Positions 4,169-62,888 are shown, counted from the first letter of the stretch. The stretch is 64,000 bases of DNA from Schmidtea polychroa (GCA_044892525.1 CM097885.1:13022001-13086000); one strand, 5' to 3'. Numbers and translations are program-made. Notes: generated by a model not told the origin, from the sequence alone.

Positions 4169-4217
<49 letters not shown>

Positions 4218-5254: not shown

Positions 5255-5362
5255 TGTGAATTATGATTAAAATGAAATGGTACAGGGTTTTTATACCTAT
5301 GACTATTGTTTATCATCCAATCAGATTGCAGTATGTTTTTGTTTTAATTGAATGATAAATAA

Positions 5363-5827: not shown

Positions 5828-5931
5828 TTTAATGAAATAATTTTAAAAACTTTGATATATATAGGTATTTAAAAACAGAGTTCATTTAAATTATCAATAT
5901 AAACAATAATTATATAGTTTAAATTTAAAAA

Positions 5932-6570: not shown

Positions 6571-6583
6571 AAACATATAAATC

Positions 6584-7072: not shown

Positions 7073-7133
7073 ACAATGGGTGCTAATCCTTCATTACCAG
7101 ACATTAAATTTAATATTAAATCTTCTTGTTGTA

Positions 7134-8192
7134 ATGGAGAAGATTTGGACGAACCCGGAAGACGAAGCCGGTTTTGGTGGAGTGGCAAAATTAAGGAAAA
7201 GAGTTCCGAATTCGAAAAAGGAAACTCAGAAGTGGTTATCAGACCAGCTTGCCTACAGTTTGAACAAACCAATGCGGAAACGATTCCCAACAAGAGCATA
7301 TAAAACATATGGAATAAATGATTTATGGCAAATGGATTTGATGGAGATGATACCCTATTCGAAAATTAACAATGGGTATAAATATATTTTAACATGTATT
7401 GATGTATTCAGTCGGTTTGCCCGAGCAATACCCGTCAAGGCAAAATCTGCAGATGAAATGTCTAAAGCTGTTAATCATTTATTTAAAGATGGACATCCTA
7501 AAAACTTGCAAACTGATTTAGGTATTAATATTATTATTTTTATTATTATTATTATTATTATTTTAGGTAAAGAATTCTACAACAGTAAAGTCAAGCAAAT
7601 CCTCAATAAATTGAAAATAAACCATTACTCAGTACATTCTCAATACAAAGCTGCTCATGTTGAAAGATTTAACCGAACTTTGAGAGATAGATTAAAGAAA
7701 TTATTCCTGCATCAAGGTAATAAAAAATGGGTATTGGTTTTACCAAAAATAATAACCAGTTATAATCACTCATCATATCAAGGACTGAATGGATTAAGGC
7801 CGATTGATATCACGTCAAAAACAATCTATTCTAAAAAACCTGAAAAAATTACAAAACCGAAATATAAAGTAGGTGACCATGTTAGAATTAGTAAAATTAG
7901 TGCATCACCATTTATTAAAAATTTCGATACAAATTGGAGTGATGAAGTCTTTGTAATTTCAAAAATAAATACTAAACAGAATCCTGTAATGTATGTCATC
8001 AAAGACAATGATAACAATATTGTACAAGGAAAATTTTATGAACAAGAATTACAAGTTATTCCTCCCCCAAAAGTATTTAGAATTCAGAAGATATTGAAAA
8101 CTAAAAAGGTCGGCAAGGATAAACAATACTATGTCAAATGGCATGGTTATCAAAACCCATCATGGATATCAGAAAAGGATCTAGTAAAGTGA
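7134..8192 (+). CDS. Retroviral-like DDE integrase with C-terminal chromodomain; 45-nt intron at 7522-7566
   Basis: WQMDL, CIDVFSRFA, QTDLG|KEF, VERFNRTL, PKYKVGDHVRI, and chromodomain YYVKWHGY...SW. The first ATG is at 7134; removing the GT..AG segment restores TDxGKEF. Confidence 0.95.
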   Translation: MEKIWTNPEDEAGFGGVAKLRKRVPNSKKETQKWLSDQLAYSLNKPMRKRFPTRAYKTYGINDLWQMDLMEMIPYSKINNGYKYILTCIDVFSRFARAIPVKAKSADEMSKAVNHLFKDGHPKNLQTDLGINIIIFIIIIIIILGKEFYNSKVKQILNKLKINHYSVHSQYKAAHVERFNRTLRDRLKKLFLHQGNKKWVLVLPKIITSYNHSSYQGLNGLRPIDITSKTIYSKKPEKITKPKYKVGDHVRISKISASPFIKNFDTNWSDEVFVISKINTKQNPVMYVIKDNDNNIVQGKFYEQELQVIPPPKVFRIQKILKTKKVGKDKQYYVKWHGYQNPSWISEKDLVK

Positions 8193-9205
8193 ATTTTTAT
8201 ACTATTTTACCAAGCAATAGTTGCCCGCTTATTCATCCAGATAATCAAGCCAGTAAATTCATGGTCAATCTCCAGAATCCGATTTCTTTAAATGGTGACT
8301 GGGAAGTTGCACTGCAAGATTTTACATTCGTGTACAATACATTCCCATTTTATAGTCAATGTAAGATTGATTTCAAAAGGAATGCTATGAAAACATGTAG
8401 TGGTATCTTTATTATCAGTAATTATGATAAAACATATCATATTCCGAATCAAATATTAGATCAGCATTGCTCTATGTTTTACAAGGATGGATTAAATATC
8501 AGTTGTGATTTTAAACCATTTACAATAACATTCGAATATATTGAAGATGCCAGACGAATGGGTTGCAATAAGTTGAAAAATGAAGTTATGGAAACAGATT
8601 ACTTATTACGCTTTGATCTATTTGAAGCAAACAGTGTAATGAGAGAAGAAATCAAAATTTCAGTGTCGTATAATAATGAAGTTGAAGAATCATTCACCTT
8701 CGCTGACGAATTATATATTGATAAACTTGATGTGTTACTTAAATATTTAAAGTACAATTGTTCACACATATTTAAAAGTTTGGACATTGTGAAAGATTTG
8801 TTATTTACCTTCAGTTTGAATGATGACATTTGCGAAGTTACATTTGATAAAAATTTGACAAATACACTTGGATTAGAGAAGCAACAATATCGGGAAAAAT
8901 CGGCTGGTATACGTAAACCAAGAATACTTGAACATCATCAACAAATGTCCATATATACTAATATGATTGAACCTATAATTGTTGGCGATTCCAGTGTTCC
9001 TCTATTGAAATCGGTATGGATTGGAAAATATGAACATGATGAAGTTGTCAATATAAATATAGATAATCCTATGTATTTACCAATTTCAAGCTCATGTATA
9101 AACAATATAGAAATAAATATTCGTGACGATAGTGGAAAACTTATAAACTTCCCAAAAGACTCAAAAACTCATTTGACACTACATTTTCGTAAAGTAGATG
9201 GCTAA
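8189..9205 (+). CDS. Minor capsid protein (penton-like)
   Basis: N-terminal FYTILPSNS...PDN...F.V.L...L.GDWEVAL and C-terminal IYTNMIEP..VGD...PLL, YLPI, IEINIRDDSG..I.F, LTLHFR. Start uncertain: GTG at 8189 overlapping the integrase stop, or ATG at 8138. Confidence 0.88.
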   Translation: MNFYTILPSNSCPLIHPDNQASKFMVNLQNPISLNGDWEVALQDFTFVYNTFPFYSQCKIDFKRNAMKTCSGIFIISNYDKTYHIPNQILDQHCSMFYKDGLNISCDFKPFTITFEYIEDARRMGCNKLKNEVMETDYLLRFDLFEANSVMREEIKISVSYNNEVEESFTFADELYIDKLDVLLKYLKYNCSHIFKSLDIVKDLLFTFSLNDDICEVTFDKNLTNTLGLEKQQYREKSAGIRKPRILEHHQQMSIYTNMIEPIIVGDSSVPLLKSVWIGKYEHDEVVNINIDNPMYLPISSSCINNIEINIRDDSGKLINFPKDSKTHLTLHFRKVDG

Positions 9206-9560
9206 TTCCGATATTATTAGTATGTATAGTGATAGCCAATCTGGTGGTGAATTACCATATTTTATCGGTAAACAGTACGGAACAGGTTGGTTAAAAACAA
9301 TAGGGAGATTTGCACTTCCTATTCTTAAACGTATTGGTAGTTTTGGCATGAAAACTGCTAAAGATGTGATTATGAATGAACAGAAAATATTACCATCTCT
9401 AAAAACAAATGCTTTAGCGGAGTTAGGGAAGGTTCTACCTGGAGTTGCTGGTATGTTTCAAAAAGATACGCCTACAGCCCCAGCTCCAAAACGTAAAGGA
9501 CATGGAATATCGCGTATAAACAAACGAATGAAAGGACATGGAACTATATTTGCAAAATGA
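9198..9560 (+). CDS. Small conserved Polinton virion protein with amphipathic helix (putative protease substrate)
   Basis: QSGGELPYF..KQYGTGWLKTIGRFALPILKRIG pattern, located between the two capsid genes, with a basic C-terminus. Confidence 0.7.
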   Translation: MANSDIISMYSDSQSGGELPYFIGKQYGTGWLKTIGRFALPILKRIGSFGMKTAKDVIMNEQKILPSLKTNALAELGKVLPGVAGMFQKDTPTAPAPKRKGHGISRINKRMKGHGTIFAK

Positions 9561-10780
9561 TTTGTGGTAAATCTGAATTATGTATATTTGATAGACCATC
9601 GCCCCAGGCTGTAATAGAATTTGGGGCCTTTGAGGAAGTTTTTCCTATGAATTCAATTACTGATAGTAGAAATGATATCGAGTTTTATATTAATGGTTCG
9701 CAAACTGAATATTTAGATTTGAACGATACTTTATTGACTGTTCAGATCAAAGTTGTAGATAAAGATAGAAAAGTTTTGGATGCCAATGCGGATGTATTAC
9801 CAAACAATTTCATGTTTCATACTCTGTTTAAAGATGCAGTGTTGGGATTTAATAATATCAAGATTGAGGGCGGAAATAATACATTCATTCACAAGGCTTT
9901 GATAGAAACTATTTTAAATTACAATTCAGATACTAAAAATACCTGTCTTACACCTATAGGTTATGCAGCAGCAGATGATGAAAGAAAAAAGTGGGTTAAA
10001 GGTTCAAAAGTATTCACTATGTGCTCATCATTACAACTTGATTTTATGGATCAACCGAAATATTTACTACCGGGAGTTAATGTACATATTAGATTGAAAA
10101 GGTCCGATTCTGCATTGTCTCTTACTAGTGCAACTGGTGCACCAATATGTCAATTAGTTGATGCAAAATTATTGGTGAGAAGAGTTCGAGTAGACCCGTC
10201 AGTATTAGCTGGTCATCAATTGGGTCTTAATTCAAAACATGCAATTTATCCTTTAAAAACAAAGGAAATTGTACAATTTGCTATTGCTAAAGGTGCTTCA
10301 TCATTCTATAAAGAACAAATATTTGGTGACAGAAGAATGCCTAATTTTATTCTGGTAACATTTCAAAGTGAAACGCAATATAATGGGTCTTATACTGCTT
10401 CCAGCTCAATTTTCAAAAACTTTGGTGTTACTTCATTGACTTTGTCGAAAAATACTGATTATAGAGAAACATATACTCAAGATTTCGAGAATGATAATTA
10501 CTGTGCGACATATATGCAGAGTATTGTTAGAAATCTTGGTTATTTAGATAAAAACTTGAATTGTGGAATAACTCTTGAAGAATTTAAAAGCAAATATCCA
10601 TTTTTCACATTTGTTTTAGCCCCCGATTTTGATTTAAATCAGAGTCAATTACCACAAAACGGAAATTTACGACTGGATATAAAGTTTGCAAAGGCCATTA
10701 CTGAACCAGTACATGTTATAATATATGGAGTATTTGAAAATGAAGTTCAGATTACTGCAAATAGAACCGTGCTAGTATAA
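9557..10780 (+). CDS. Major capsid protein (double jelly-roll)
   Basis: CGKSELCIF..P.PQ, IEFYI.G...YLDL..T.L.V, QPKYLLPGV...IRLKR, GNLRLDIKF and final ENEVQIT..R motifs of Polinton MCPs; intact 407-aa ORF. Confidence 0.92.
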   Translation: MICGKSELCIFDRPSPQAVIEFGAFEEVFPMNSITDSRNDIEFYINGSQTEYLDLNDTLLTVQIKVVDKDRKVLDANADVLPNNFMFHTLFKDAVLGFNNIKIEGGNNTFIHKALIETILNYNSDTKNTCLTPIGYAAADDERKKWVKGSKVFTMCSSLQLDFMDQPKYLLPGVNVHIRLKRSDSALSLTSATGAPICQLVDAKLLVRRVRVDPSVLAGHQLGLNSKHAIYPLKTKEIVQFAIAKGASSFYKEQIFGDRRMPNFILVTFQSETQYNGSYTASSSIFKNFGVTSLTLSKNTDYRETYTQDFENDNYCATYMQSIVRNLGYLDKNLNCGITLEEFKSKYPFFTFVLAPDFDLNQSQLPQNGNLRLDIKFAKAITEPVHVIIYGVFENEVQITANRTVLV

Positions 10781-11192
10781 ATGTATACAGAAACACCAAA
10801 AAGTTGTCATGGAGTAAGTTTTTCAATACTGTTTAATTTATTAAAGTAGTTCTGTTCAGGTCAATAGAATTGGAAAACAGATATTGGGAAATGAATTTGT
10901 AGGAGTTTTTCCTCTCGATAAAATCCCATATTTGAGCATTAATCAAGCCATAATCGTCAATACTCAATCGTCTCATCTTGGTGGAGAACATTGGATTGCT
11001 ATATATATGAAACCTAGTAATATATTCGTGTTCGATCCAATGGGTTTCTATTACCCTGCTTTGTTGGTATCAAAACTACAAACAATGGGGAAACCTATTG
11101 TATATAATAAAACTATGTTTCAAAATCCATTAACACAAACTTGCGGTCAACATTGTTTAGCTTGGTTGTTGTATAAAAAAATTGATGTTTAA
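10781..11192 (+). CDS. Adenain/Ulp1-like maturation cysteine protease, probably 2 exons (10781-10813, 10860-11192)
   Basis: FVGVFP.D, IVNT...GEHW, FDPMG, Q....TCGQHC (His/Asp/Gln/Cys catalytic set). The ATG follows the MCP stop directly; a GTAAGT..CAG 46-nt intron removes an in-frame stop. Confidence 0.88.
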
Positions 11193-11221
11193 TAAATGTA
11201 TCCTTTCCTTTGTTGTTGTTG

Positions 11222-11650
<429 letters not shown>

Positions 11651-11749
11651 TAATTAAATTTATTTTGAAAAATATTATTATCTAACTACACAATCATTGT
11701 GCATGCACAAAGTCATGACTAACAAAGATATGCAATCCCATTTGATACC

Positions 11750-11840
11750 ATTTGATTGGCTGATAGAGGAAAAAGTATTCAGAAATGTGTCTTAATTCTG
11801 ATTGGTTGAGACATGGAAATATTCCTGTTCTATATAAACA
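11750..11840 (+). promoter_or_regulatory. Candidate Pol II promoter of the pPolB gene
   Basis: Two GATTGG (reverse CCAAT) boxes at ~11754 and ~11800, and TATATAAA at 11831, about 80 nt before the ATG at 11915. Confidence 0.55.
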
Positions 11841-11914
11841 TTGACAAATTCCAAATTCATCACAATTTTATCAAAATTTTCAATTTCTAATTTTTCAAAA
11901 TTACAAACTTTAAA

Positions 11915-12967
11915 ATGTCTAACAATAACAACAACATATTAAGAAGTCTATTGACTAACGGTAATTTTATTATTTATTTATTTATTATATTTTATTCTTT
12001 ATTTTTTAGATGTGTTCGATTGGTATCAAGTTACTGAGGACGAAAGAATTTTGAATGTTGATAGGATTTTCGGTAAATTTAAATATTTTAATTTTTATGA
12101 AATTATTATTATTTTATTTAGAACCTATTATAATTAGCGACGATGATGATGTCGTGTTTATTGGACAAACTAATGCCCCGGATAATGATGCCTTATTTAT
12201 TAGGCAAAACAATGTTTTCAATAATCAAAGTAAATTTATTTTATTTTAGTATATTATTTTTTAAAAATCATTTAGTGTTTAATGTTGACATGGACGCCCC
12301 AATTAATAATGATGAGGAAAACAATATGGAAAATGTCCTCACTTCTATTGAGGAGAATAATGCTCACATATCTATTGATGAAAATAATGCCCTCACTTCT
12401 ATTGAGGAGGTAGCTGATGAGGAATCTGATTCCGATCAGGAATCACAATGTAAGCATTTATTTATTTTTATATTTCTTTAACAAAAATTTTTAAAATTTT
12501 CTTAATAACTTTTTTAAACATTTGCATAAATCTTAATCGTAAAATTATTATGTTTTTTGAATTATTATTGTAATTATGACGAAATTATGAAGAAATTACT
12601 ATGATGGAAATTATAAAGAAATTACTATGATGAAAATTATGAAAATACTATGATGAAACTAATATGACGAAAATGAAGAAAATTATGAAAATGTTATATT
12701 GAAATTATTATAACGAAAAATAGAGGAAATTATGAAAATGATGAAATTATGAAAATGATATTTGATGAAATTATTATGAAGAAATGAAGAAATTATTATG
12801 AAGAAATGATGAAATTATGAAAATGATATTTAATGAAATTAATATTATGATGAAATGATGAAATTATTATGAAATTATTAGGTTATGCAAATGTTTAAAA
12901 AAGTGATTAAGAAACTATAGTTTTAAAATATTCCTTGTAGTTTGCAATGAGCAACTACATTAGTTTA

Positions 12968-13046
<79 letters not shown>

Positions 13047-16000
13047 TATCTTGTAGTCTGCAGTGAGCATGCAGCTACATATCTCTTTTATTATGATTGC
13101 CCCAATAAATGTAGTCTGCAGTGAGCATGCAGCTACATATCTCTTTTATTATGATTGCCCCAATAAATGTAGTCTGCAGTCAGCATGCAGCTGCATCAAC
13201 TATTTATTACGTAATAAATACAATCTTTAAATGTAGTCTGCATGCAGCTGCATCAACTATTTATTACGTAATAAATACAATCTTTAAATGTAGTCTGCAT
13301 GCAGCTGCAACAAACTATTTATTGTGTAATAATTAACCCTTATTAAATATAGTCTGCATGCAGCTGCATCAAACTATTTATTTATTATGCAATAATTACA
13401 ATCTTTAAATGTAGTCTGCAGTGAGCATGCAGCTACATCAATAATAATAATACTAATATTTTTATTCTATACATATACTCTCTTTCTAATATTATTTTAA
13501 TAATTTAATATGTTTAGTTAGCATGCAACTAAAGACTCTTATTATATAAACATGTAGGTTACAGTGAGCATGTAACTACAGAAACAATAATAATAATAAA
13601 ATCCCTATTATAGTTTACAAGACTTTATTAATATTTTACAATTATTAATATTTATTTCATTTTTATATTGTATTTAAATGAAACATATATCAATAATTGC
13701 AAAAGAACTAAATGATAAAAGAAATATAAATGATATATTAATTTCATGATTAATAATAATTGATAAATATAATTAACAGGCAAATTTTATCCACATTACT
13801 GCCAGGCTTCAACTGGTCACTCAAATTTATGTCACAAAGTGATGAAAAAATATTATGGTCGTAAATTTTATGGCATCAAGTACTATATATGCCCAATATG
13901 CGAGACTTCCCATAGCATTAAATATTTAGAGTTTTACAGTATACATAAATCCCATTTAAATCAGTTCTCTTTAAATAAAAAGGATTTATTTAACAAACTA
14001 CGAAATACTGCAAAACCTATAATTAAAACTAATGTAAATAATATTACAAAACATGTAAATAATATTACAAAACCTGTAATTAAAACTAATACAAAACATG
14101 TAAATAATATTACAAAACCTCTAATTAATAATGTTATTAATGTAAATAATAATTTAAAAAGACCTGCTGTTAGTATTGGGTCTGATGCTCCCTCTAAAAT
14201 TAATAAATTAGAACAAATAACTGTGGTTAATAATATTCAAGTAGGCGGTTCAGTCGATATTGACGATGAACCTGAAATCGAAATTGATTTTAAGGGGGTT
14301 CGAAAGAATCTAAGATTTAATGTAGAAAAGGATAACATCGTTCAAATAACCATAACCGATAAAATCGTTAAGTTAAAACATGAAATAAACAGAATGGGGT
14401 CGGTGAAAATACAATTCTCTGTATTGATTCAATTTGAAAAAGATGGTGAAATTAAAGATAATTTCTTCTCGAATAGGGCAGAGGCTTTTTCAGATAGTTT
14501 TCTAAGTGAGGGGGTTCACAAATTAAATAATAAAATAGAAAAATTCACATATTTGGGTAGTGGATGGCGGGTTGTTAAAATCAAAGAAATAGATTTTATA
14601 TTAACAAAATTTACACATATGAATAGGCTAGCTGGACATAGTTACATCCCCACCCCATCATCTTTAAAATCTAAAAATGCAATAGTAAATGTTAAAAACA
14701 CCGATGATATGTGCTTTATATATAGTATTTTAGCACTTTTAAAACGTAATATTATACATAGACATAGGAACCGTGTTAGTTCCTATGAAAATTATCTCAA
14801 CGAGTTAAATTTTGACCCCATTTCCGACTGCCCAATGAAACTATGTGATATTCCTAAATTCGAGATGAAAAATAAGGATTTAAATTTAGCAATAAATGTT
14901 TTAACTTATAGAACGACCCCTGCTAAGCCTTTTGAAAATATAGTTGACGATAATTATATTCCACATCATCCCAAATTGGATATAATTCACCAATCTAAGG
15001 TTATAGGTGGTGAACCCATATACTTACTTCTATTGGAAGACGGAGATAATTTTCATTATACCGCAGTTTTTAATTTGCAAAGATTAATGAATTGTCGCTC
15101 TAGCAGTGAATGCGGCGTTAGAATTAAAGTGAACTGGTGCCCCCATTGTCTTAACGGATTTAGACTTAAAAATGCATTTGATATTCACGTTGCCTTATGC
15201 ATTAAAAACCAGATAGGTACTACTTTATATACCCTACCTAAAGAGAAAAATTTAATTTTTCAAAATTATGCGAAAACCATAACCCTGCCATTCGTGATAT
15301 ATGCAGACTTTGAATCAATTTTACCGGGGGATATAATACACCATCAAAAGCATTTGCCAATAACAGCAGGTTTATTATTAATAAATAATTATAATAACTC
15401 CAAATTTTATTATGAGTTTGTTGGGGATGATTGCATCTTATCTTTCTTGCGTAAGGTGGAGGAAATTCCTATGACAATTGTCCTACCATATTACGAAATT
15501 AATGGGAAAAAGCCCATGCAAACCTTGTCTTTCGCTGAAGAGCGGGCCTTTCGTGATTCCAGAACCTGTTATCTTTGTAAAAAATTCATTAGAAATAGAG
15601 TTAGGGATCATTGTCACTTTTCAGGTAAGTATCTTGGTGCTGCTTGTAGGAAATGTAATGTGTCTCGACGAATTCAGAAACAGTTACCTGTGGTTTTTCA
15701 CAATTTGAGGGGGTATGATCTTCATCATATTTTGAAGTATGGTTTGAATAATTTTCCTTCTTGGGAATTAAATATTATTCCGACCACTACTGAGAAATTC
15801 ATCTCTCTTATCGCGTACATTAACAAATTGTCTGTTCGTTGTATTGACAGCATGCAGTTTGTTAATTCGTCTTTAGCAAAAGCGGTTAAGACTCTTTCCG
15901 ATCTGCCTTTAACTTCTTCTGTTTTCGATGGCGCAATTGTTCGAGCCAAAGGTATCTTTCCTTATGACTTTGCCACATCTCTTGAGGTTCTAGAATCGAC

Positions 16001-17714
16001 TCTTGAATTGCCACCTATTTGGGATTCTGTGTCTAATGATGAATATGCATTAGCCTAAGTTATTTGGACTCAGCAAAACTGCAATAACATGTTAGATTAC
16101 ATGTTAACTTACCTTAAATTAGACGTGTTTCTCCTCGCAGACTATTTCCAACAATTCCGTGCAAAGGCCGTTGCTTACAATGGTCTTGAGCCTCTTAATT
16201 TCTATGGCATTCCCGGTATGTCATGGGCCTCTGCGCTTATGACATTAACGGAACCCATTGAACTTTTGCAGGACATGGAAATGTTTAATTTCTATGAAGG
16301 AGGGATACGGGGTGGGTTAACATTTGTTAACAAACATTATGTTGCAAGTTCTGAAGACACAGAACTCTTGTATATTGATATTAATAACTTGTATGGTTGG
16401 GCCTTAAGCCAAAATCTGCCTTATGCTGACTTTGTTTGGGTGTATGATGATCTTGATTCTGTCTTGAATGAATGTATGAATGCTGATATCGATAACCTTC
16501 CATATGGCTATACTATGGAGGTAGATATCGATATACCTGATTGTTTGCATGACTTTCTGAATGATTTTCCGCTTGCTCCGGAAAAGATGTGCCCGCCAAA
16601 TTCTAAAGTTGAGAAGCTGATGCTCACGCATTGGCCAAAGAAGAACCATGTTCTTCATTGGCGACTTCTCAAGTTGTATATAGAATTGGGGGCTATTATT
16701 AAAAATGTACATAGACCAATCAAATTTGAGCATGCACCCATTTTTAAATCTTACATAGACAAAAACACTAATTTGAGAGCCAATTCTACATGCGAATTAT
16801 ATAGGGATCTATACAAATTATTTAATAATAGTCTGTATGGGAAATCCGTAGAAAACCTTAAAAAACGGATGAATTTGAGGCTATGCAATTCAGCTGAAAA
16901 GATGATTGTATATGCTTCAAAGCCGACTTTCAAGAAATCTATCAAAATTGATGATGACTTGATTGCTGCACATCTCAATAAGGATTCTATATGTTTAGAC
17001 AGGCCTAGTTACATTGGCCAAACGGTGCTAGACCTGTCTAAACTGAGGATGTACCAGTTGCAGTATAAAGAATTGGCTAAATATAGAAATGAATTTAAAT
17101 GTGAGATAAATATCGTTGCCGGCGATACTGACTCCTTTTTTCTTGAGGTTAGGCACTGTAAGCTTGACACTCTTTTGCCGTCAATGATTCGTGACAATCT
17201 TTTAGACACTTCCAACTATGACCCTGCACATCCCTTATACTCTAGAAACCTTGATTCGGTGATAGGTAAATTTAAAGATGAAAGTAAAGGTCTAGGGTAT
17301 AAGGAATGGGTTTTCTTAAGACCCAAGTGCTATAGTTTGTTAGGGGTTAAAGATCATTTAAAGGCAAAAGGAGTTAGGTTAATAGGTACAGAAATTAGGC
17401 ACGATTCATATTTAGAATGCTACAATAACGACGTAGTATTTTCTGTGCCACAAAGTAAGATAGGGACGCGGAACCATCAATTGTACACATTTAAAAACAA
17501 TAAAATCGCGTTGACAAACAACGACGACAAGCGGTTTTGGGTGGGGAAAAATTCCAGTCTCGCATTTGGTCATTATTTAGCACTAGATGATATAAATGAT
17601 GATCAAATATTTGAAGAAGTTGGGGCACTATTCGGAGGATTAAGTCCAGATTTTGTTTCTGGTGATGATCCTAATGATGAAATTGATATTGACGATGTAC
17701 AATTGAGTGATTAA
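11915..17714 (+). CDS. Protein-primed family B DNA polymerase; predicted exons 11915-11960, 12010-12072, 12122-12229, 12276-12449, 13780-17714; single in-frame TAA at 16056-16058
   Basis: Exonuclease motifs YADFES, FHNLRGYD, YLKLDV. Polymerase motifs YIDINNLYG, KLFNNSLYGK, GDTDS. Also GSGW, an NTDDMCF...FHY region and an EndoVII-like CxxC..RDHCH insert. The two large ORFs share a frame, and four phase-1 GT-AG introns join the upstream exons in frame. Confidence 0.93.
12937..13580. repeat. Array of ~10 palindromic units GTAGTCTGCA(GTGAGCA)TGCAGCT(A/G)C with ~58-bp period
   Basis: Copies at about 12937, 13053, 13111, 13169, 13232, 13290, 13350, 13411 and 13554, plus an isolated copy near 18016. 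Confidence 0.85.
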
Positions 17715-18075
17715 GCGATTTTAATATATCTTTTTCCTGTGATAAATAAATATAACTTTGTAAAAACATTGATTTGTGTTGATTTTTATTAATGAAAAGT
17801 TTTCGTATTTCTTTCTATGGATAAAAATCATTATATTGTGTAATATTATTAAACATTCCTTAAGTGTTTAAACATAGAAAGTATATTAAAAATTGTTTTA
17901 TTATTGAAAACTAGTAATGTTGTCACTATGGAACAGGACTTTGTTTTGAGCCATTAAAAGAATTTAAATTTTTATAAAGTTTTATTTAATTTGATAATAC
18001 TGTTCATATTTACTTTAGTTTGCAGTGAGCATGTAACTAAATATCTTTGAAAAAAAAATAATAATAATAATAATA

Positions 18076-18162
18076 TGAACAGTACCCATGTGACTTGTTG
18101 AATGTGAGTAGTACCCATGTGAGCAATACCCATAGTGGGACAGAATATTTTGTCGGATAGAT

Positions 18163-18238
<76 letters not shown>

Positions 18239-19237
18239 TATAATAATTATAATAATAATAATAAATGACCTTGAAAAAATAAATGACCTTGAAAAAATAA
18301 ATGACCTTGAAAAATATAATGATCACTTAATTAAAACAAAAAATTAAATTAAAAAATGACCTTGAAAAAAAAGTCCTTTATGAGTCACGCGACCTTGAAA
18401 AAATAAATGACCTTGGAAAATAAATGACCTTGGGAATGACCTTGAAAAAATAAATGACCTTGAAAAAATAAATGACCTTGGAAATAATAATATTTTGAAA
18501 AATAAATGACCTTGAAAATGGTCTCGGGAAAACGTTAATAATTTTGCCAATAATAATTATATTAATAATATTTATATATCAATAGTTAGATCTTGCACTA
18601 AGCTTCAAAATAAGCTATCGATTAATAAATTCGGATAATGGGAACGATAACTTTTGGGATGATAAAAAGTAGGGGCCCGCCAGACCACTTAATAATTATA
18701 TGACCTTGAAAATGATTTTTGGTAAAATGTTAATAACTTTGTCAATAATAATGATGATGATACCTTCAATAGCTCATTCGAAAGGTCTTGCATTGGGCTT
18801 TAAAATAAGTGTTTGATTAATAAAATCTGTTGGCGGGAACATTAATTTTTGGGATGAAAAAAAGTAGGGGCCCTCCCGGCCAATTAATAATATTTTGGAA
18901 AATAATAATAATTTAACGTTGAAAAGATGGTGGTCATCAATTGTTAATAACATTAAAACTATTAAAGATATATAAGATACCTATAGCTCATTCGAAAGGT
19001 CTTGGACTGAGCTTTAAGATGAGGTATCGTCCAATAAAATCCGTTGGCGGGAACATTAATTTTTGGGATGAAAAAAAGTAGGAGCCCGCCAGACCACTTA
19101 ATTAAAACAAAAAATTAAATTAAAAAAAAATAATAAATGACCTTGACCTTTTATTTTTAAAAAAAAATTTTCCCGGGGGGGAGGGGGTATATGTGGTCTG
19201 GAGGGCCCATGGTCTGGGGAGCCCACATCATACTACT
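18076..19237 (-). repeat. Right terminal inverted repeat of the Polinton
   Basis: Near-identical reverse complement of 3143-4304; similarity decays at the inner end. Confidence 0.93.
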
Positions 19238-19906: not shown

Positions 19907-20749
19907 CATTATTATTATATAAAAAATAATAAGAAGAAACATAAGAAATTTTAAAAATTTTTATTAAGGCAATCCAGTAAATTTGAAAAAATCCATAAAC
20001 TATAAAGTAGTATATTGTGCAGGAGTATTTTTATGTAGGTCAATTCAAAAGTAAGGGCCCACTCACTCAAAGTAGTCACATACACACAGGATATATATTT
20101 TCAATAAAAGTTTCAAAATATTGATGATAAAATTCAATATTGGGTGTTCACAGGTGAGTTTTCAACAGTATAGGGATAATTTCACTGTGAAGATGGAGAT
20201 GGGGTAATTTATGAGATCTTATTTAAATAAAATTTTGTTATATTTCTCAAGTATTCAGTAGAATACGATGATTGATGAAATCAATTTAATATATTTATTA
20301 TACTATTTGTTTTCCATAAAACATATTTTTTCAGATTGTTTAATATTTAAAAAAACATACTAGGCCATCAAATGTATAATTAGTATTAAATAGTCTTAGT
20401 AATTATATCTCCTAGAATGACATGAGTAGGTAGTTAGTGGCCCCCCGCAGCAATGACCCCCCGGGGGGAGGGGGGTTCTGCTGCAACTTTTTTTTTGCTG
20501 CAACTTTTGATTACGCAATTTTTCAGACTATAGTGAGGGGGTCTCGATGGTCCTGGGATTTCCAATACAAATAAAATTTTTTCAATACAAAAAGGTGGTC
20601 TACACTAAAAAAGCATGGTAATTTAAGGTCTCAAGATATTTTCAATACAAATAGATGGTCTACACTAAAAAAGCCAAGGATTTTTCAGACTATAGTGAGG
20701 TGGGTCTTCTTGGTCCTGAGAACTTCAATATAAAAAAGGTGGTAAATTT

Positions 20750-21270
20750 TTTCAATTACAGTAAATAATGGTCCAAATTTTTAAAATACAGTAAATTATG
20801 GTTCTAAAAAATTAAAATACAGTAAATAATGGGTCTAAAAATTAAATTACAGTAAATTATGGTCCAAATTTTAAATTAAAGTAAATTATGGGCTAAGATT
20901 TTTGAATTAAAGTAAATGATGGTCTAAATAAGTAAATCAAGGTCCAAAATTTTAACTTAGAGTAAATTATGGGCTCAGATTTTTGAATTAAAGTTATCAA
21001 TGGGCTCAAATAACTAAATTAAGGTTCAAATTTTTAAATAAAAGTAAATTATGGGTATAAAAATTCAATTACAGTAAATAATGGTCTAAATTTTTGAATT
21101 AATGTAAATTTAGGTTCTAAAATATTAAATTAAAGTAAATAATGGTCCAAATTTTAAAATTAAGTAATCAATGGTAAAAAATTTTAAATAAGTAAATTAA
21201 AGTAATAATTTTTAAATAAGTAAATTAAAGTAATGTAATAAGTAAATTAAAGTAAGATTTTTAAATTTAT
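20750..21270 (+). repeat. ~30-bp subterminal tandem repeats (AAATTACAGTAAATTATGGTC..)
   Basis: Directly visible; mirrored at 32280-32860. Confidence 0.8.
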
Positions 21271-21549
21271 TAACAAAATGTTGAAATAATAGAAGGTGTT
21301 TGAGAATTGAAATTTTTTAATGAAAATTTTTATGAAATAATTTTTTAAGTAATTTTTAATGGAGATTTTTATGAAATATTTTTCAATGGTAATTTTTATT
21401 GGAAATTTTTATGGAATAATTTTTTAAGTTAATTTTTAATGGAGATTTTTATGAAATATTTTTCAATGCTAATTTTTAATGGAACGTTTTAAGATAATTT
21501 TTAATGGAAATTTTTATGAAATATTTTTCAAAGACAAATTTTAATAATA

Positions 21550-22900
21550 ATTCAACAACAAACCAACAACTTAGTACCAACATGTATTTACAATTAGATA
21601 CTAACAACCAAAAACAAGCAACCAACTAGGTACCAGATACCAAGTACTAACAACCGCCAACAACCAGATACCTACAACTAGTTACTAACAACATGTTACC
21701 TGATACCAAGTACTTACAACTAGATACCTTGCACTAACTAACTCTCAAACAACCAGATACTTACAACCAAGTACAAGATACCAAGTACTAACAACCGAAA
21801 ACAACCAGATACCTACAACTAGTTACTAACAATTAGTTACTAACAACCAGTTACCTGCTACTAAGTTCTTACAACCAAGTACTAACTACCACCTACCATG
21901 TACTAACAACCAAAAACATGCAACCAACTAGCTAACTAACAACCAGTTACCTGATACCAAGTACCTACAACTAGATACTAACAACATGTTACCTGATACC
22001 AAGTACTTACAACCGACAACAAGCAGGTACTAAGCATCATCAACCAACTACTAAGTACATACAACCAACTAACAACTACTTACAACCAACATCAACCAAC
22101 TACCTACAACTAGTTACTAACAACCAGTTACCTGATACCAAGTACTTACAACCACCCACCCATTAACCAACATCAATCAGCTAACAACTAGCTACCACCT
22201 ACCCATTAACTAGCTACAACCAGCTAACTAGGTACTAGATACCAAGTACTAACAACCCACAAAAACCAGCTAACAACCAGCTAACAACCACCTACCAAGT
22301 ACTAACAACCGACAACAACCAGTAACTTACGAACATGTATTTACAACCAGATACCTACAACTAGTTACTAACAACTAGTTACCTGATACCAAGTACATAC
22401 AACTAGATACTAACAATCAGTTACCTGCTACTAAGTACCTAAAACCACCTAACAAGTACTAACAAACGACAACAACCAGGTACTAAGCATTATCAACCAT
22501 GTACTAACAACTAGATACCAAGTACTAACAACCAGTTACCAACTACTAAGCACCTACAACCACCTACCAAGTACTAACAACCGCCAACAACCAGATACCT
22601 ACAACTAGATACTAACAACCAGTTACCTGCTACCAAGTACCAACATCAACCAACTAGCTACAACCTACCAAGTACTAACAAACGCCAACAACCCATTAAC
22701 TAGCTACTAAGTACTATCAACCTACAACAACCAGGTACTAAGCATTATCAACCAAGTACCTACAACCAACAACAACTAGCTACCACCTACTAAGTACTTA
22801 CAACCAAGTATAAGATACCTAGTACTAAGCACTGTCAACCAAGTACTAACAACTAGATACCAGGTACTAAGCACTGTCAACTAGATACCAAACACTTACA
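21550..22900 (+). repeat. C/A-rich shuffled short-motif array (ACAACCAGTTACC, GATACCAAGTACTAAC)
   Basis: Dozens of permuted copies, mirrored as a shorter G/T-rich array at 31290-32015. Confidence 0.85.
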
Positions 22901-23207
22901 ACTAAATGACCACATGAAATTATTGGTTAAATATGAAAATAAGGGTTATATTTAGTTGTTAAGTAAATTATGGTGTAAAATTAAGTAATAAAGAATAATT
23001 AGGTAAATTAAGGATAAATTAAGGAAAATTAAGGTTCAAAATTTAAAATTAAAGCTAAAGGAGTAAATTAAAGTAATAATTTTTAAATAAGTAATGTAAT
23101 AAGTAAATTAAACTAAGATTTTTAAATTTATTATCAAAAGATTGAATAACCACCAACTTTTTTGAGAAATGTAATTTATAATGAAAATTTAAATGGAAAT
23201 TTTAATG

Positions 23208-23280
<73 letters not shown>

Positions 23281-39046: not shown

Positions 39047-53755
<14,709 letters not shown>

Positions 53756-56276: not shown

Positions 56277-57760
56277 TAAGGAAAATAAACTTATTATTGT
56301 TTCTATATAGAATATTATTTGTTTATATATGGTGATTATCCAAAAGATGCAGAATTCGAAAAATATTTATTGTAAAAGGAAGTAGATTTTAATCAAGCGA
56401 TTATTTCTTCACAAGCTATCGCGGCAAAAATGGATTTCCAAAAATTTATAAGTAGTTAGATGTGAGGCCTGTCGCCACCATTAATTATCACACACTGGTT
56501 AGCAAAAGAGCTCCCTCCTCTACCACCCCTTCAAGGGCAAGTCGCGATTATTGATTTAAAAATTTTAATATTTTTATTGATTTAAATGTGCATAGTAGTG
56601 TATATAATGAGAACACCGGCTCACCCTACGCATCTAAGGTATTACTAATTTAAAAAATCTTAATATTAACGATTTTTAAAACTAAAAAAATATTTTAAAC
56701 ATAAATGGGTGCTTCTAAAAAAATAGATACCCAAAATACATGTGTAATAGAAACTTCAATCTAAAGTTTTGTTGAACCAAGTAATTTTTCTATCTAGTCT
56801 TGTCTAAAATATGTGAGGGTAAGCCGGTGTTTCCATTATATAATAATTGAAAAATTGAAAAATATAAAAATTTCTAAGGGATGTCGTTGACTAATTACCT
56901 TAAAAGTTTGTACAGCTACTAAATCGAGTATGCTAATCAATATTTCGTTAAAAAAAATTTGAAAAAAAATTGACCGAAATGGATTTTGAACCCATTGGTA
57001 TTGACAATACCATCGAGTGCTATTACCACTAAGCTATTACTGCTAAAAATACTAAAAAATAAGTTGTTATTGTTTGAATATTTATTGATGAAATTAATAA
57101 TTAATTATTTTTTTTATTTGTAATCTTGATGTCTTGTAATTTAAAAAATAAAAAAATTTATTTTTCCACTGTCCTCTAAACAGTTTTTTTTTATCCGGAT
57201 CATTTTTTTATTTATCAATTTTAACCTCTTTCGTTTATCGAATCTCTTCCAATATACAAGCTGGCCAGACTCATACATCAGAATCAATTCGATAGTTGTA
57301 ATGCATCTCAATGGTGATATTATCAGCATTACCGAAAGTACAAATGAATTCGAAAGCGAATCCGAAAGAGGAAACCAAAGACAAATAAGTCGACTCGAGT
57401 GGGGATCGATCCCATGGGTGTACGAAAGACTGGTGGCGGTTCGCCAACCACACCCATTTCAATAAAATATTTTTTCCCATTAAACATAGAAAATTAAATA
57501 TTCTACTTAAAAACTAAAAGTAGTAGAATATTATGAAAATAAATAGTTTGACTTTGGATTTTAACCGCTGTCTATTCTTACTACTGATTGAGTCCCACTG
57601 CGCTATCAGGGTTCGGATTTCTGTCATTTTTTAAAATTTTATATTTATAAAATTCTAAAAATTAGAGGGTCACATTATGAATAGTAAAAATATAACTTTT
57701 ATTGGTAAAACAAGTTTTACCAATAAAAGAAAAATTGAAATTTGAAATTTTTATTATAAA

Positions 57761-58594
57761 AATGAACAATATAAATCTCGAGATTTCAGAAAAACATAAA
57801 TTAAATCTTGATTATGATAAACAGTTTATTCATGAAATCAAAAAAAATGATGTACTTAAAATTTGTCCAACCTCTGGTTCCATTTCAAATTTAAATCGTT
57901 CAGGTGATATAGTTTTTCAATCTCTTCAAACATCAAACCCTATAGATATTTGTAATGCAAAATTATATTACAAAATTGAATTACATATTGAAGCAAACAA
58001 AGATATAACCCTAGAAAATAATTTCTTCCCAAATTTCTTCTCCAACATGAGATTAAAATTAGGACCTTCAGAAGTTGAAAATATTTTGAATCCGGGTGTA
58101 TATTCTTCAATGTTAAATTTTGTTTTGACTGGTTGTGATTACAAAAATGAATATGGTGAATTAACAGGTTGGATCCCTGATGTAAATAAAGGTGATACCG
58201 ATAAAGATGGTTTAAATACAAATTATGGTTATAATAAACGTGTTTAACTTTACAAATCTAAAAAATTTGAAGGTTATTTTGAATTAAAATATTTATTTGG
58301 ATTCCTTCAAAACTATAATCGTATACTCCATAATGTTTTCATAGAATTACTTTGTAATAGAATAGAAGATAATAAAGTATTATTCTATGACGTTGCAGAT
58401 ACAAAAGGTAAATTAAAATTAACAACGATTGAATTACATATACCAGAAGGGACATTAAATCCGCATGCTGAAATTAAACTCCTTGAAAGATTAAACTCCA
58501 ATAAATCTATAAATGTTAATTATTTAAATAGAATTTGTAGTGTATTTGACATGAAAGAAGGTTCAACATACTCTATAAAAATAAAAAATATCTA
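57761..58594 (+). pseudogene. Truncated Polinton major capsid gene (different clade from 9557-10780)
   Basis: NLNRSGDIVF, LENNFFPNFFS...EVENILNPGVYSSM, then after an in-frame TAA at 58245: LKYLFGFLQNYNRILHNVFIEL..NR. Confidence 0.7.
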
Positions 58595-59193
58595 AAAGTT
58601 CAAGTTCATGAAAATGATCATACTTGGTCTGCTGATTTAGTCTTTATGCCAACCAAATCATCAGACCTCGAAAAATATAAAATAATTTTAACTGTAATAG
58701 ATTTATATACAAGATTTGCTTTTGCAAGATGTTTAGAAAATAAAACAGGATATTCTATTACAGAAGCATTTGAAAATATATTTGAAGAACATCAAAGAAT
58801 TCCAAAATATTTATGGTGTGATAAAGGAACAGAATTTTATAACAAAGTTTTTACAAAATTTTTGCAAGAAAATGATATTAAATTATATTCAACAGAAAAC
58901 GAAGGAAAAGCAGTCGTAGTTAAACGATTAAATAGAACGTTAAAATATAAAATGTGGTTTTGGCTCTAAAACAAGAATTAGAAAAACCAAAGTTTAAAAT
59001 TGGTGACCGAGTAAGAATATTTAAATATAAAAATAAATTTGAAAAAGGATTCACAGCGAAATGGACAAATGAAATTTTTATTATAAATAAAGTACATCAT
59101 ACAATTCCAATAACATATGGTATCATCGATGAAAATAATGAAGAAATATTAGGTAGATTTTACAATAATGAATTACAGAAATCAAGTTTTTAA
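58595..59193 (+). pseudogene. Deleted Polinton integrase
   Basis: WSADL, VIDLYTRFAF, CDKGTEFYN, VVKRLNRTLK (catalytic E replaced by K), then a frameshift to PKFKIGDRVRI...KGFTAKWTNEIF...GRFYNNELQK. Confidence 0.88.
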
Positions 59194-59605
59194 TATTTTA
59201 AAAACAAGTTTCAAACAAGATTTTTTTGTAACTCATCGCTTTCTCTATCCAAATAAATATAATTGTATTTTTTTCAATGTTTAGCAACAAACACATCAAA
59301 CATATACTTGCCAGGTTCAACATTTGAAAATAAATCACTGTAAATCATATTCTTGTCACGCTTATCTAATTTAAAAAAGATGAAACAATTGGATTTTTTC
59401 TTGCAACTCGGTTATTATATCTTTATTCATTCTTTTGAATCCTTTCATTGAAAATAAATGTTTATAATTATTTGAAATTTCTGAATTTAGAAAGTTTTGA
59501 TTTGATTCATTTCCCTCCGATATTTTGTTTTAACTATAATCTTGTATTTTATAATATTGAACCTTGAACCTTTGAAACCTTTTATGGATTGCTCCAATGA
59601 ATCTT

Positions 59606-60025
59606 TTATCTCATTGGAGTATTTTTTAATATATGATGAAATTGAGGATGTTGCAAGTTCTTCAGAACCAAATATATCAATTTGATTAAATTCATCGCAA
59701 TTTTCCTCTTCTTGTTCACTTTCTTCATTTTCTTGACCACATTCTCTAGCATGTTTTTTAATTTTTTATGACATATTAAACAAGAAAATGTTTCTCTAAT
59801 TCTTTTAATTCCAATACAATTTCTATAATGTATATCAAACCCTGAGAATAAATATCTCTCTCTACACTTGTCACAAATTTTAGAGTTTGTATCATCTAAA
59901 AGATTTTCATTAAATAAATGATCTTTTGATTTTTTATGAGAAGTTAATGCTGTCTTTGTTTTGAATTTTTTATTACACAAATTACAAAAATAATTTTCAG
60001 TATTCAAATTTCTCGAAGTAGCCAT
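59606..60025 (-). pseudogene. C2H2 zinc-finger ORF fragment within the Polinton remnant
   Basis: YFCNLCNKKF.....LTSHKKSKDH followed by further CxxC motifs; the C-terminus looks frameshifted. Confidence 0.55.
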
Positions 60026-62888
60026 CTTTTTTAAAAAATATTTTTTCACTGGTTCAATTTTTATATTTTTATATTTTTATATTTTTCAATTTTTATATTT
60101 TTACTATTCATAATGTGATCGTCTAATTTTTAGAATTTTAGAATTAAATATATAATTAAATATCATTATAAATATAAAATTTTAAAAAAATGACAAAAAT
60201 CCGAACCCTAATAGCACAGTGGCAGTAGTAAGAATAGGCAGCGGTTCAAATCCCAAGTCAAACTATTTTTTTTTCAACACAAAATAATATTAAAAATATT
60301 ATTTTCATAATATTCTACTACTTTTAATTTTTAAGTAGAATATTTAATTTTCTGTGTTTAATAGGAAAAAATAAATTTTAAAAACAAGATTGCTGGCTCA
60401 GTGGGAATAGACTACCACAGTGGTTCAAATAAATTGTGGTTCAAATACCAACTGAAATCAATTTTTTTCAACATAAAATATTAAAAATAAATATTAAAAA
60501 AATATATAGTGTGGGTATCTTAGGAAATACATCTTGTATATTTTATTTTTTTATTAATTAATTAATTTTTTAACATAAATATGAAAAAATATTTTATTGA
60601 AATGGGTGTGGTTGGCGAGCCGGGAACTACCTCCACCAGTCTTTCGTACACCCATGGGATCGATCCCATAATGTGCTCATTCATTTCGAAATGTTTCTCG
60701 GTTGTTTTCGAACCTCTTTCGGATTCGCTTTCGAATTCATTTGTACTTTCGACCAGCACGCTTAAAACACCGATGAAATCGACTTCGTGAGCGAGAAGCG
60801 AATAATAAGGCGTGCTGCTATTATCGAATTGATTCTGATGTATGAGTCTGGCCAGCTTGTATATTGGAAGAGATTCAATAAACGAGAGAGGTTAAAATTA
60901 ATAAATAAAAAAATGATCCGGATCAAAAAAAAACTGTTGAGAGGACATTGGAAAAATAAAATTTTTATTCTTTAAATTACAAGACATCAAGATTACAAAT
61001 AAAAAAAATAATAAATTATTAATTTCATCAATAAATATTCACACAATAACAACTTATTTTTTAGTATACCAATGGGTTCAAAACCCATTTCGGTCACTTT
61101 TTTTTTCAAATCTTTTTAACGAAATATTGATCAGCATACTCGATTTAGTACCTGTACAAATTTTAAGGTAATTAGTCAACGAAATCTCTTAGAAAATTTT
61201 ATATTTTTCAATTTTTATATTTTTATATGTTAAAGTGTAATGGGAACACTGGCTTACCCTTACCTTTTTTAGACACCACTAGATAGGAAAATTACTTTGT
61301 TCAACAAAACTTTAGATTGAAGTTTCTATTAAACATCTTTATTTTTTTTCAATGTTAAAAATCGTTAATGTTAAATTTTTTAAATTAGTAAATTCCTTTT
61401 ATTGATTTTTAAGTGCAAAGTGCTGGGGTGCTACTCGGTTGACTCAAACGACTTTTAAGTCCCGTCTAGAGTATGATAGTCCATTAAACTAACGTATTTC
61501 ACTTTTCCGTCAACCTTAAGTTGAACTCCACACGATCTGCATTCCGACATAATACCCATGAATTGCTTCATGTTGGTACTGTATTATGCCGGCGAGACGC
61601 CAGAAAACAGGTGAGCCCCTGCCTTAGGACTACTCCTTCCTGAGGCCTCGACTTCCCTTTCCCTGACTGCCGATAGAAGGTCTTACGTCTTCCTACTCTT
61701 CCTCTATACTCGACATTCCATCGTTTTCTGAGTTCATTGCCAGTTATACACTATTCAAAGATGTCAGTCAACCAAATTATCTCGTAGAGAAAAAAGAAAA
61801 TAAATTTTACCGATACTCAAAACAGAACCCAATGATTTAAACAAAACTGATTTATTAAATTGCCAACATACAAGAAAAGCACAGATGTTACAAACGAAGG
61901 CAGTTCATCACATCGAAAAATCACAAGAGTTGTAACTAGAAACTTCGGCCTGCACAAGGAACTTGGTCACTTTTCCCATTCTGTTTCTGCTAATAATGCT
62001 TCTAGGTCGAAAAATTCAGACGCATTCTCCTCCCATGTGACGCCAGCTGCGGAGATAATGCGCCCTGGAATTCCGATGTTCATACTGGTTGCAGGAGCAA
62101 CACTACCTTCCGTTGATTCAACACCAGAAACTCGCTTCTTTTCTTTTTCTGCAACTCTTTCCTTCTGCTTTCGTTTTCGTTCGGCTCGAGATAGCTGTCG
62201 CCGTTTGGGCTTGAAGGAGGAACTGATAGTGGGGGGGTGCACTGGATGTGGAAGCAATTTTTGGATTTACTTTGCTAGTGCCCGTGAAGATTACATCGTT
62301 AGATTTGTGTGAGAGCTCCGACTCCACACACCCTTGGCATGATCTCTCCGATGTGCGCGGTCTATCGAGAGGCTGATCGTGATGCGTGGGGAATACATTA
62401 TCCTCCTCGATGATCGGAATGCTTACGATCTTTTTCGCATCTTGTTAATCTGCAAATTTCATAGCGGAATGATCAATTATCATAAAATCGTGGAAATTAA
62501 CGGTGCCTATCGTGATTATGCAACTGTTCTAAGGTTGTTAGAAGATGGTTCGCTGTATTTTCGCAGCCTGCTGTCCTCCGTGCGTGCATCGAATGAAATT
62601 GGAATTATTCAGAAAGAAACTCACTTCTCGTGGAATCACAGACTGGCCACTTAACGAGCAGTTCTAGCTTACAATGTGCTAAGTACTGTAAACAGGCATG
62701 ACAATGGATCATTTTCGAGAGTAAAGTTAATGTTTTCGTTTTGTTGTTCAAAATATAATGTACACAATCGTTTTCGCGTTTATTTTTCGAATGCCTATAG
62801 CTTAAGGGGATGATGAGAGGAAAAAATAGACTTATGCTGATTTAGATTATACGAGGAGAATATGAACGGTGAGACGGATCTTGTAGGG

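Follow-up and report, generated by a model that had tools for sequence, protein, structure and literature searches.

Do animal Polintons still act as viruses, and how do they handle the small-RNA defence of their host? Both questions are touched by a Polinton-like element in a 64-kb stretch of DNA (the whole of the DNA analyzed here, referred to as the window). Vertebrate DNA viruses are known to employ clusters of Pol III RNAs, as exemplified by VA RNA, EBER and TMER. A preliminary description of the window had placed ten A-box and B-box motifs in the arms of this element and had proposed VA-like small RNAs; of this overall reading, the anatomy of type-2 Pol III genes within the inverted arms is supported by boxes, spacing and T-runs, and the likeness to VA RNA holds by analogy only.

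The element is a 4.8-kb deleted Polinton-like remnant with broken genes and with Pol III-type units inside both inverted arms. The left arm (56594..57695) begins with AGTAGT and contains a sub-terminal inverted repeat (56601-56627 / 56816-56842), and the homology of the right arm (60093..61391) to the left arm ends about 50 nt before the left terminus. With a length of 1.1-1.3 kb, the arms represent the long inverted ends that are a feature of Polintons/Mavericks; they diverge from each other by 0-10% over most segments, two segments reaching 37% and 51%. Polinton ends are AG...CT together with a 6-bp target-site duplication, and the window's first Polinton shows both. On the right side of the remnant, no end matching the left AGTAGT and no 6-bp target-site duplication were found, and the number of candidate end pairs was zero. 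The gene encoding the double-jelly-roll major capsid protein is broken into two pieces (57696..58595, plus strand), of which the first is 84% identical to full-length P0002, itself assigned to PF21738, and the second matches PF21738 (E 1.5e-8). The rve integrase gene is also in two pieces (58550..59193, plus strand; PF00665, E 4e-12), the second being assigned from position and resemblance only, and shows 32% identity to the integrase of the window's first Polinton. A C2H2 zinc-finger reading frame (59606..60076, minus strand; PF12171, E 6e-6) is directed inward from the right arm. Because protein-primed DNA polymerase B, packaging ATPase and protease are all absent from the reading frames between the arms, this copy was classified as a Polinton-like remnant. 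Like the Polintons/Mavericks and adintoviruses described in PMC8502044, it has long inverted ends, an AGTAGT start, an rve integrase and a double-jelly-roll capsid gene; unlike them, it is reduced to 4.8 kb of broken genes that include no polymerase, ATPase or protease, it has neither a right terminus nor a target-site duplication, and its arms differ by two hypervariable segments.

All ten motifs of the preliminary description are present. The A boxes at 60212, 60394, 57036(-) and 57605(-) and the B boxes at 60243, 60438, 60656, 56992(-) and 57566(-) were confirmed, as were the positions of the T9, T7 and T8 runs; TGGCGAGCCGG, which had been placed at 60612, starts at 60613, although 60612 gives the better tRNA register. 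This A box is a poor match to the consensus, and both A-box patterns used missed it. The strict A-box pattern has four matches on both strands of the 64-kb window, all four inside the arms, and is absent from the window's first Polinton. Three A+B pairs in 56600-61430 were reached by none of 1000 dinucleotide shuffles, and all four matches to the A+B+T pattern in the window lie inside the arms and are directed outward; these figures come from A/B patterns that were composed after the motifs had been seen and from units that are not independent of one another.

The units had been said to differ from one another, and they do fall into four types; they are not five unrelated units, the one at 57605(-) being the left-arm copy of the one at 60212(+) (alignment z 14.6). 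In the right arm, unit 1 (60205..60274, plus strand) has an A box at 60212, a B box at 60243 (20 nt between) and T9 at 60266-60274; in the left arm (57536..57612, minus strand) it has an A box at 57605, an off-consensus B box at 57566 (28 nt between) and a T-run interrupted by a 32-nt gap. Unit 2 (60387..60468, plus strand; A box 60394, partial B box 60422, B box 60438, T7 60462-60468) is found in the right arm only, the left arm having a 218-nt gap at this place. Right-arm unit 3 (60604..60966, plus strand) combines a weak A box at 60612 with a palindromic B box at 60657, T4 at 60705 and a first T5 at 60962, giving a predicted RNA of ~363 nt. Its left-arm counterpart (57150..57455, minus strand) has an A box cut by a 10-nt gap, a B box at 57412 and T7 at 57156 with no T4 before it, giving a predicted RNA of ~305 nt. 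Unit 4 is represented in the left arm (56962..57043, minus strand) by an A box at 57036, a B box at 56992 (33 nt between) and T8 at 56969-56962, and in the right arm by a remnant (61068..61106, plus strand) with a B box at 61075 and T9 at 61098-61106, the A box being lost in a 49-nt gap. The units at 60212, 60394 and 57036 are paralogues (alignment z 5.3-6.2), and any relationship of the 60612 unit to the other three types is weak at best (z 0.4-2.5). Moreover, units 1 and 2 are homologous beyond the terminator (60243-60301 and 60438-60496, 80%), which points to DNA duplication and not to retroposition.

In this copy, tRNA-like spacing between the A and B boxes is found only in left unit 4, right unit 2 and right unit 3 (33, 32 and 33 nt, respectively), the rest being damaged or missing. 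In the three short unit types, the T8, T7 and T9 runs begin 23, 24 and 23 nt from the start of the B box, the distance at which a tRNA gene terminates; a T-run of this kind has a chance of ~0.05 per position, although the units are paralogues. Unit 3, as the preliminary description had not noticed, lacks a strong terminator nearby, with the first T5 or longer run at +256 and +305 from the start of the B box. The spacing of 20 and 28 nt in unit 1 is below the range of yeast type-2 promoters, given as a 32-93 bp span in PMC12409998.

The promoter of unit 3 leads into a 147-179-nt domain with a computed stable fold that is specific to the promoter strand. In the right arm (60713..60891, plus strand), this core is predicted to form a four-way junction consisting of a closing helix, a small hairpin, a variable helix (60752-60761/60810-60819) and a long hairpin (60823-60879), and the same junction is predicted in the left arm (57225..57371, minus strand; variable helix 57332-57326/57304-57298, long hairpin 57293-57237). 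On the promoter strand the core reaches z -5.0 in the left arm and -3.8 in the right, a stability equalled by 0 of 300 shuffles, whereas the opposite strand gives -2.3 and -0.8; for the 57-nt long hairpin, the values are -5.5 and -3.8 as compared to -0.3 and +0.9. With 120-nt windows, z in the right arm reaches only -2.5. The left long hairpin has 23 pairs, including 7 G-U and no A-C, with a tandem G-A, and one substitution breaks a hairpin pair in the right copy. Within the variable segment, the two arms differ at 51% of aligned sites, as opposed to 0-4% in the flanks, and the segment closes as a helix in both (7/7 and 9/10 pairs; 61 and 25 of 20000 shuffles), the two helices not being alignable base by base. 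Since only two copies of the module are available, both from one decayed element, these pairs do not amount to a real covariation count. With its two arms, this copy provides two natural versions of the folded domain next to each other. Of all the promoters, that of the long RNA is the weakest: the A box departs from the consensus and is interrupted in the left arm, and the palindromic B box is readable both ways; in addition, the T4 located 48 nt past the B box in right unit 3 could stop Pol III. T-runs are only weakly depleted in unit 3 (174 and 987 of 5000 shuffles), a figure biased by the end that was chosen.

As the preliminary description had noted, the units cannot be folded as tRNAs. 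ARAGORN found no tRNA genes; against the Rfam tRNA model, unit 4 scored 15.4 bits (cut-off 29, E 0.68) and units 1-3 gave no match. Placed in the tRNA register, unit 4 (57036) has a D-arm of 3 pairs plus U-U and a T-arm of 5 pairs, and only 3 of 7 pairs in the acceptor stem, and identity as tRNA genes was rejected for all units. Unit 4 also contains a hairpin with a 7-nt loop and GTC in mid-loop, to which no anticodon was assigned because the loop lies 5 nt outside the tRNA register. Rfam searches yielded no matches over 56400-61600 at E up to 5 and none over 1-60400 at the gathering score, and small stretches gave sub-threshold matches only. Hammerhead ribozyme, SRP RNA, RNase P/MRP, 7SK, vault RNA and telomerase RNA were dropped after comparison by eye with known motifs; SECIS was dropped in the same way, as the tandem G-A is present and the remaining features are absent. 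Because they fail both ARAGORN and Rfam, routine annotation would miss these units.

Both arms carry a cluster of outward-facing tRNA-derived units with the build of Pol III genes, and it is likely that elements of this kind would make small RNAs of their own. The best explanation for the locus as a whole, which is considered probable by a modest degree, is that the arm units are putative Pol III genes belonging to the element that have partly decayed here. Directly visible are the boxes with their spacing and T-runs, the orientation and paralogy of the units and their location in both arms; the strand-specific folding is computed. Three of the unit types would yield U-ended RNAs of 70-85 nt, and the fourth would serve as the internal promoter of a 300-360-nt RNA with a predicted four-way junction and a long G-U-rich hairpin; both the ends and the sizes of these predicted RNAs are defined. 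Following established type-2 promoter biology, TFIIIC would bind the B and A boxes and place TFIIIB upstream, and Pol III would transcribe up to the T-run. In what is the weakest step, the RNAs would work in trans and, being abundant, would serve as decoys or substrates of the host's dsRNA and small-RNA machinery of the Dicer type. Protection of the element by such a role, comparable to what viruses gain from their TMERs and VA RNAs, is suggested by analogy and is rather doubtful.

Among the alternatives, the one that survives best is that the units act in cis only, with TFIIIC, alone or together with Pol III, being recruited by the boxes so as to protect the inward capsid and zinc-finger promoters from host heterochromatin or to hold the ends open, and with RNA as a by-product. 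Several unit copies are located between the element ends and the first genes, and the short units no longer have a cloverleaf and show weak folding (z +1.4 to -2.0), both consistent with this role. Barrier activity is described for tRNA genes and ETC sites in PMC12409998, which the units resemble in their B-box clusters and in possible TFIIIC binding at a boundary, and a cis effect of TMER promoters is left open in PMC4337559. However, ETC sites are presented in PMC12409998 as extended B boxes that lack TFIIIB and Pol III, whereas the present units retain A boxes, exactly placed T-runs and a folded downstream domain, and a strand-specific G-U-rich domain is not needed for a cis function. As an account of the entire locus, a cis role is unlikely; for the three short units a purely TFIIIC-based cis role may apply, leaving the terminators and the strand-specific folding of the fourth type unexplained.

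It is distinctly unlikely that the folded domain, possibly along with its promoter, was passively captured from a host locus (an rDNA spacer or an unannotated Pol III RNA gene) and owes its folding to selection in the host. Pre-rRNA spacers often contain long G-U helices, which agrees with such an origin, but the domain lies directly behind an A/B promoter on the same strand and matches no Rfam family at E up to 10 apart from one weak snoRNA match. Moreover, the two versions of the variable helix between near-identical flanks suggest change within the element under a constraint on structure, unless the capture involved two host variants.

Ordinary SINE heads, the remaining alternative, find no support within the window: target-site duplications were at chance level in all five units tested (same length in 505-1870 of 2000 shuffles; unit 2 was outside the test), the short units terminate at a T-run of their own and carry no tail, all units point outward, and no copies exist elsewhere in the 64-kb window. 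Tailless short units and the lack of duplications and dispersed copies in the window set the units apart from the tRNA-derived SINEs described in PMC4758252, which they resemble in the tRNA-derived head with A and B boxes and in the body of unit 3, unrelated to tRNA. Insertion and decay of ordinary tRNA-derived SINEs or tRNA pseudogenes in the arms is very improbable, even though single-module tRNA SINEs and head-body-tail SINEs are known (PMC4758252), unit 3 could be read as head, body and A-rich stretch (A-runs ahead of its T-run), and unit 2 occurs in one arm only.

Returning to the putative Pol III genes of the element itself, relatives were sought with protein-based searches, which confirmed no loci in viral_contigs and gave two in half of the metagenome_contigs collection, neither with an A box; the only one with an end in view, L001, is a distant relative (31% capsid identity). 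Exact DNA patterns of the core domain had no matches in viral_contigs or in prokaryote genomes, as expected for an animal element. Of 18 rows of sequencing runs, 10 contained part of the window, with no RNA run listed as containing it; none reached half of the words in the window, six from two studies reached shares of 0.28-0.47, and the small shares were set aside. The literature searched contained no description of non-tRNA Pol III units in Polinton ends. Read as a new RNA class, the long RNA would combine a tRNA-derived leader, a predicted four-way junction with an exchangeable helix and a G-U-rich hairpin. It is conceivable, if rather doubtful, that an animal Polinton lineage encodes this class of 300-360-nt Pol III RNAs together with satellite tRNA-like RNAs in its terminal repeats and uses them as decoys against Dicer/dsRNA defences, as an independent counterpart of adenovirus VA RNA. 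If true, this would be a sign that Polinton elements face antiviral defence as true viruses.

tRNA-type genes are carried by Polinton-related elements in the descriptions of polinton-like viruses, virophages and MELD viruses (PMC12220804, PMC8502044), as in the present remnant; those genes were detected by Rfam/ARAGORN, whereas the present units fail both and could not decode. Adenovirus VA RNA is characterized in PMC7589676 by box A, box B, a U-run terminator, a GGGU-ACCC central stem and a terminal stem; inhibition of PKR and cleavage by Dicer are further traits of VA RNA. The units share with VA RNA I/II the internal boxes and the U-run terminator, along with a proposed tRNA origin, a long duplex and a double-jelly-roll capsid gene in the carrier (PMC7589676). 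The proposed VA likeness stands as an analogy and falls short in two defining structural features on the predicted folds: the GGGU and ACCC words pair upstream of the B box, in the 5' head of unit 3 (60604-60610 with 60647-60653), and not in a central domain, and in both arms the long RNA forms local pairs at its 5' end and no terminal stem, with no Rfam match. The location in inverted ends is a further difference from the VA RNA of PMC7589676. TMERs of murine gammaherpesvirus 68, as described in PMC4337559 and PMC8223928, differ from the predicted units in having a cloverleaf; mature miRNAs are produced from TMERs, and miRNA hairpins downstream of a 5' tRNA-like fold within a single transcript were not found on the predicted folds. 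The three short types have no hairpin after the T-arm, and the head of unit 3 is predicted to fold as a rod, the sole long hairpin being nested in the four-way junction ~170-210 nt from the start. In both systems, mutually related, tRNA-like type-2 units are clustered near the genome end, and a tRNA-like head precedes a hairpin of pre-miRNA size (PMC4337559, PMC8223928). The units are best read, by analogy, as working like herpesvirus TMERs or VA RNA yet belonging to neither family.

The putative Pol III units lie in the two inverted arms (56594-57695 on the left and 60093-61391 on the right) of an element whose 2.4 kb of intervening sequence holds broken genes: a double-jelly-roll capsid gene (PF21738) in two pieces, the first of which is 84% identical to the full-length capsid protein P0002, an rve integrase, also in two pieces, and a minus-strand zinc-finger frame. 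As terminal repeats should, the arms cease to match at one shared inner point and then lead into different genes, which read inward. AGTAGT opens the left end, which also carries a sub-terminal inverted repeat (56601-56627 and 56816-56842, 188 nt apart). Searches for a right terminus and for a target-site duplication of the element found neither, and a polymerase gene is absent from it. Because the capsid proteins do not align and the integrases are 32% identical, the element is a Polinton-like remnant of a family other than that of the Polinton at 3143-19237. A distantly related metagenome contig (L001), with a related capsid gene (31% identity) followed by ATPase-like and minor-capsid-like frames named by eye (1997-6145), has a similar sub-terminal inverted repeat in the same place at its AGTAGT start (15-36 and 145-166, 108 nt apart), and these repeats may be an end structure that both elements use in replication. 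No A boxes were found in the end region of this contig.

The Polinton at 3143-19237 is flanked by a perfect 6-bp target-site duplication (GTAGCC), its ends match at about 95% across 1.16 kb, and it has frames for pPolB, an rve-chromo integrase, an A32 ATPase and an adenain protease. The integrase frame (7080-8192) contains an in-frame isoleucine-rich run within the rve core, which probably represents a small intron or insertion rich in microsatellite sequence. A TBP homologue of 154 aa (5363-5827, minus strand; PF00352, E 7e-14) lies head to head with the ATPase gene, in a family without Pol III units; no strict A box was found in this Polinton. Elsewhere in the window are a large nested palindrome at about 20400-33400 (arm pairs reaching 1548 nt at 99%, with tandem repeats inside and every ORF shorter than 100 aa), a hAT-type transposase of 616 aa that includes a Spin-doc zinc finger (40936-42786, minus strand) and a MITE-like inverted repeat at 43517-44336 (271 nt, 93% complementary, 278 nt apart).

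Four types of unit, every one facing outward, were recognized in the arms. Unit 1 has its A box at 60212 in the right arm and a copy at 57605 in the left arm; unit 2 (60394) occurs in the right arm only, the left arm having a 218-nt gap there; unit 3 is found in both arms (60612 and 57447); and unit 4 (57036, left arm) has a right copy without the A box, at a 49-nt gap. All ten motifs of the preliminary description are present in the window where it placed them, save TGGCGAGCCGG, which starts 1 nt away, at 60613. Its listing of five differing units needs correction: units 1, 2 and 4 are mutually paralogous (alignment z 5.3-6.2), with unit 3 distant from them (z 0.4-2.5), and 57605 is the left-arm copy of 60212. 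The clustering of boxes in the arms is not due to chance. All four matches to a strict A-box pattern on both strands of the 64 kb fall inside 57026-60405, and all four window matches to a combined A box, B box and T-run pattern lie in the arms. Three A+B pairs were found in 56600-61430, a number reached by 0/1000 dinucleotide shuffles; the shuffle figures overstate the case because the patterns follow a general consensus and were composed after the motifs had been viewed.

The T-run begins 23-24 nt past the start of the B box in right unit 1, unit 2 and unit 4, which we take to be tRNA-gene geometry. The A and B boxes are 20 nt and 28 nt apart in the two copies of unit 1. In left unit 4, unit 2 and right unit 3 the distance is 32-33 nt, near the bottom of the 32-93 bp range reported for type-2 promoters in yeast (PMC12409998). 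Unit 4 keeps a D-arm and a T-arm, with 3/7 pairs in the acceptor stem. An ARAGORN search found no tRNA gene and the Rfam tRNA model scored unit 4 at 15.4 against a cut-off of 29 bits. The short units, whose predicted folding is weak, are tRNA relics retaining promoter and terminator. Several units are damaged in this copy of the element, which may therefore be silent regardless of how intact members behave.

The preliminary description overlooked that unit 3 has no strong terminator close by. The first run of at least five T past its B box lies at +256 in the left arm and +305 in the right, in a homologous place, with a single T4 at +48 in the right arm, so that the predicted RNA would be about 305 nt and about 363 nt long, respectively. 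Its core domain (57371-57225 and 60713-60891) is predicted to form a four-way junction, with folding z of -5.0 (left) and -3.8 (right) on the promoter strand vs -2.3 and -0.8 on the opposite strand; scanned in 120-nt windows, the right arm does not stand out (best z -2.5). One branch is a predicted 57-nt hairpin, which in the left arm has 23 pairs, including 7 G-U and 0 A-C, plus tandem G-A. If a DNA palindrome decayed at random, G-U and A-C should arise about equally often, which would make 7 to 0 an outcome of about 1 in 128. In a second branch, 51% of aligned sites differ between the arms, against 0% and 3.8% in its flanks; this branch is nevertheless closed in both arms by a predicted helix (7/7 and 9/10 pairs) whose pairing was matched by 61/20000 and 25/20000 shuffles. 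Two substitutions fall within conserved helices, one retaining the pair as G-U and one breaking it. With only two sequences to compare, and variable helices that resist base-by-base alignment, the variable branch would show that a helix has been retained and gives no measure of covariation. Another hypervariable segment, 37% different between the arms, follows the unit 3 B box directly (57372-57401 and 60668-60712); it is predicted to pair with sequence close to the 3' terminus of the long RNA, using different partners in the two arms.

Together with established type-2 promoter biology, this anatomy suggests, at somewhat better than even prospects, that the clustered units are Pol III genes borne by the element: TFIIIC would bind the boxes, TFIIIB would be placed as at other type-2 promoters and Pol III would transcribe the units. 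That the RNAs might act as decoys or Dicer substrates is a tentative analogy. A barrier at which TFIIIC acts only in cis is unlikely, and passive carriage of host DNA in the arms, possibly rDNA spacer, is still harder to credit. SINE debris is the least probable explanation. Compared with the SINE features given in PMC4758252, none of five units tested (unit 2 was not among them) has a target-site duplication above chance, and a tail is absent from the short units. Homology between units 1 and 2 continues beyond the terminator, and no further copy occurs in the 64-kb window; within that window, the units do not appear to be the ordinary SINE heads raised as a refuting case.

As element-borne Pol III genes, the units resemble, from sequence alone, the TMERs (tRNA-miRNA-encoded RNAs) of murine gammaherpesvirus 68 (MHV68), which form a cluster of tRNA-like Pol III units at one genome end, but lack the cloverleaf followed by hairpins that TMERs have (PMC4337559 and PMC8223928). 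Judged by anatomy, the cluster would work similarly to adenovirus VA RNA, whose terminal stem is missing from the predicted RNA here and whose central domain (PMC7589676) holds the GGGU-ACCC pairs that here lie in the predicted head. The cluster fails defining features of both systems; Pol III gene anatomy in the arms, as earlier proposed, is supported, and the likeness to VA RNA is one of analogy. Bovine leukaemia virus reportedly has Pol III miRNA genes. Polinton-like viruses and MELD viruses are known to carry true tRNA genes (PMC12220804 and PMC8502044); the units here are not tRNAs. Titles and abstract openings in a literature search, whose scope excluded Repbase reports and most subscription journals, gave no description of such units in Polintons; novelty may also be affected by the genome maps and the ncRNA tables that supplement PMC8502044 and PMC12220804, respectively. 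Lying at a Polinton end, a location for which no description was found, the cluster appears akin to known viral Pol III small-RNA clusters.
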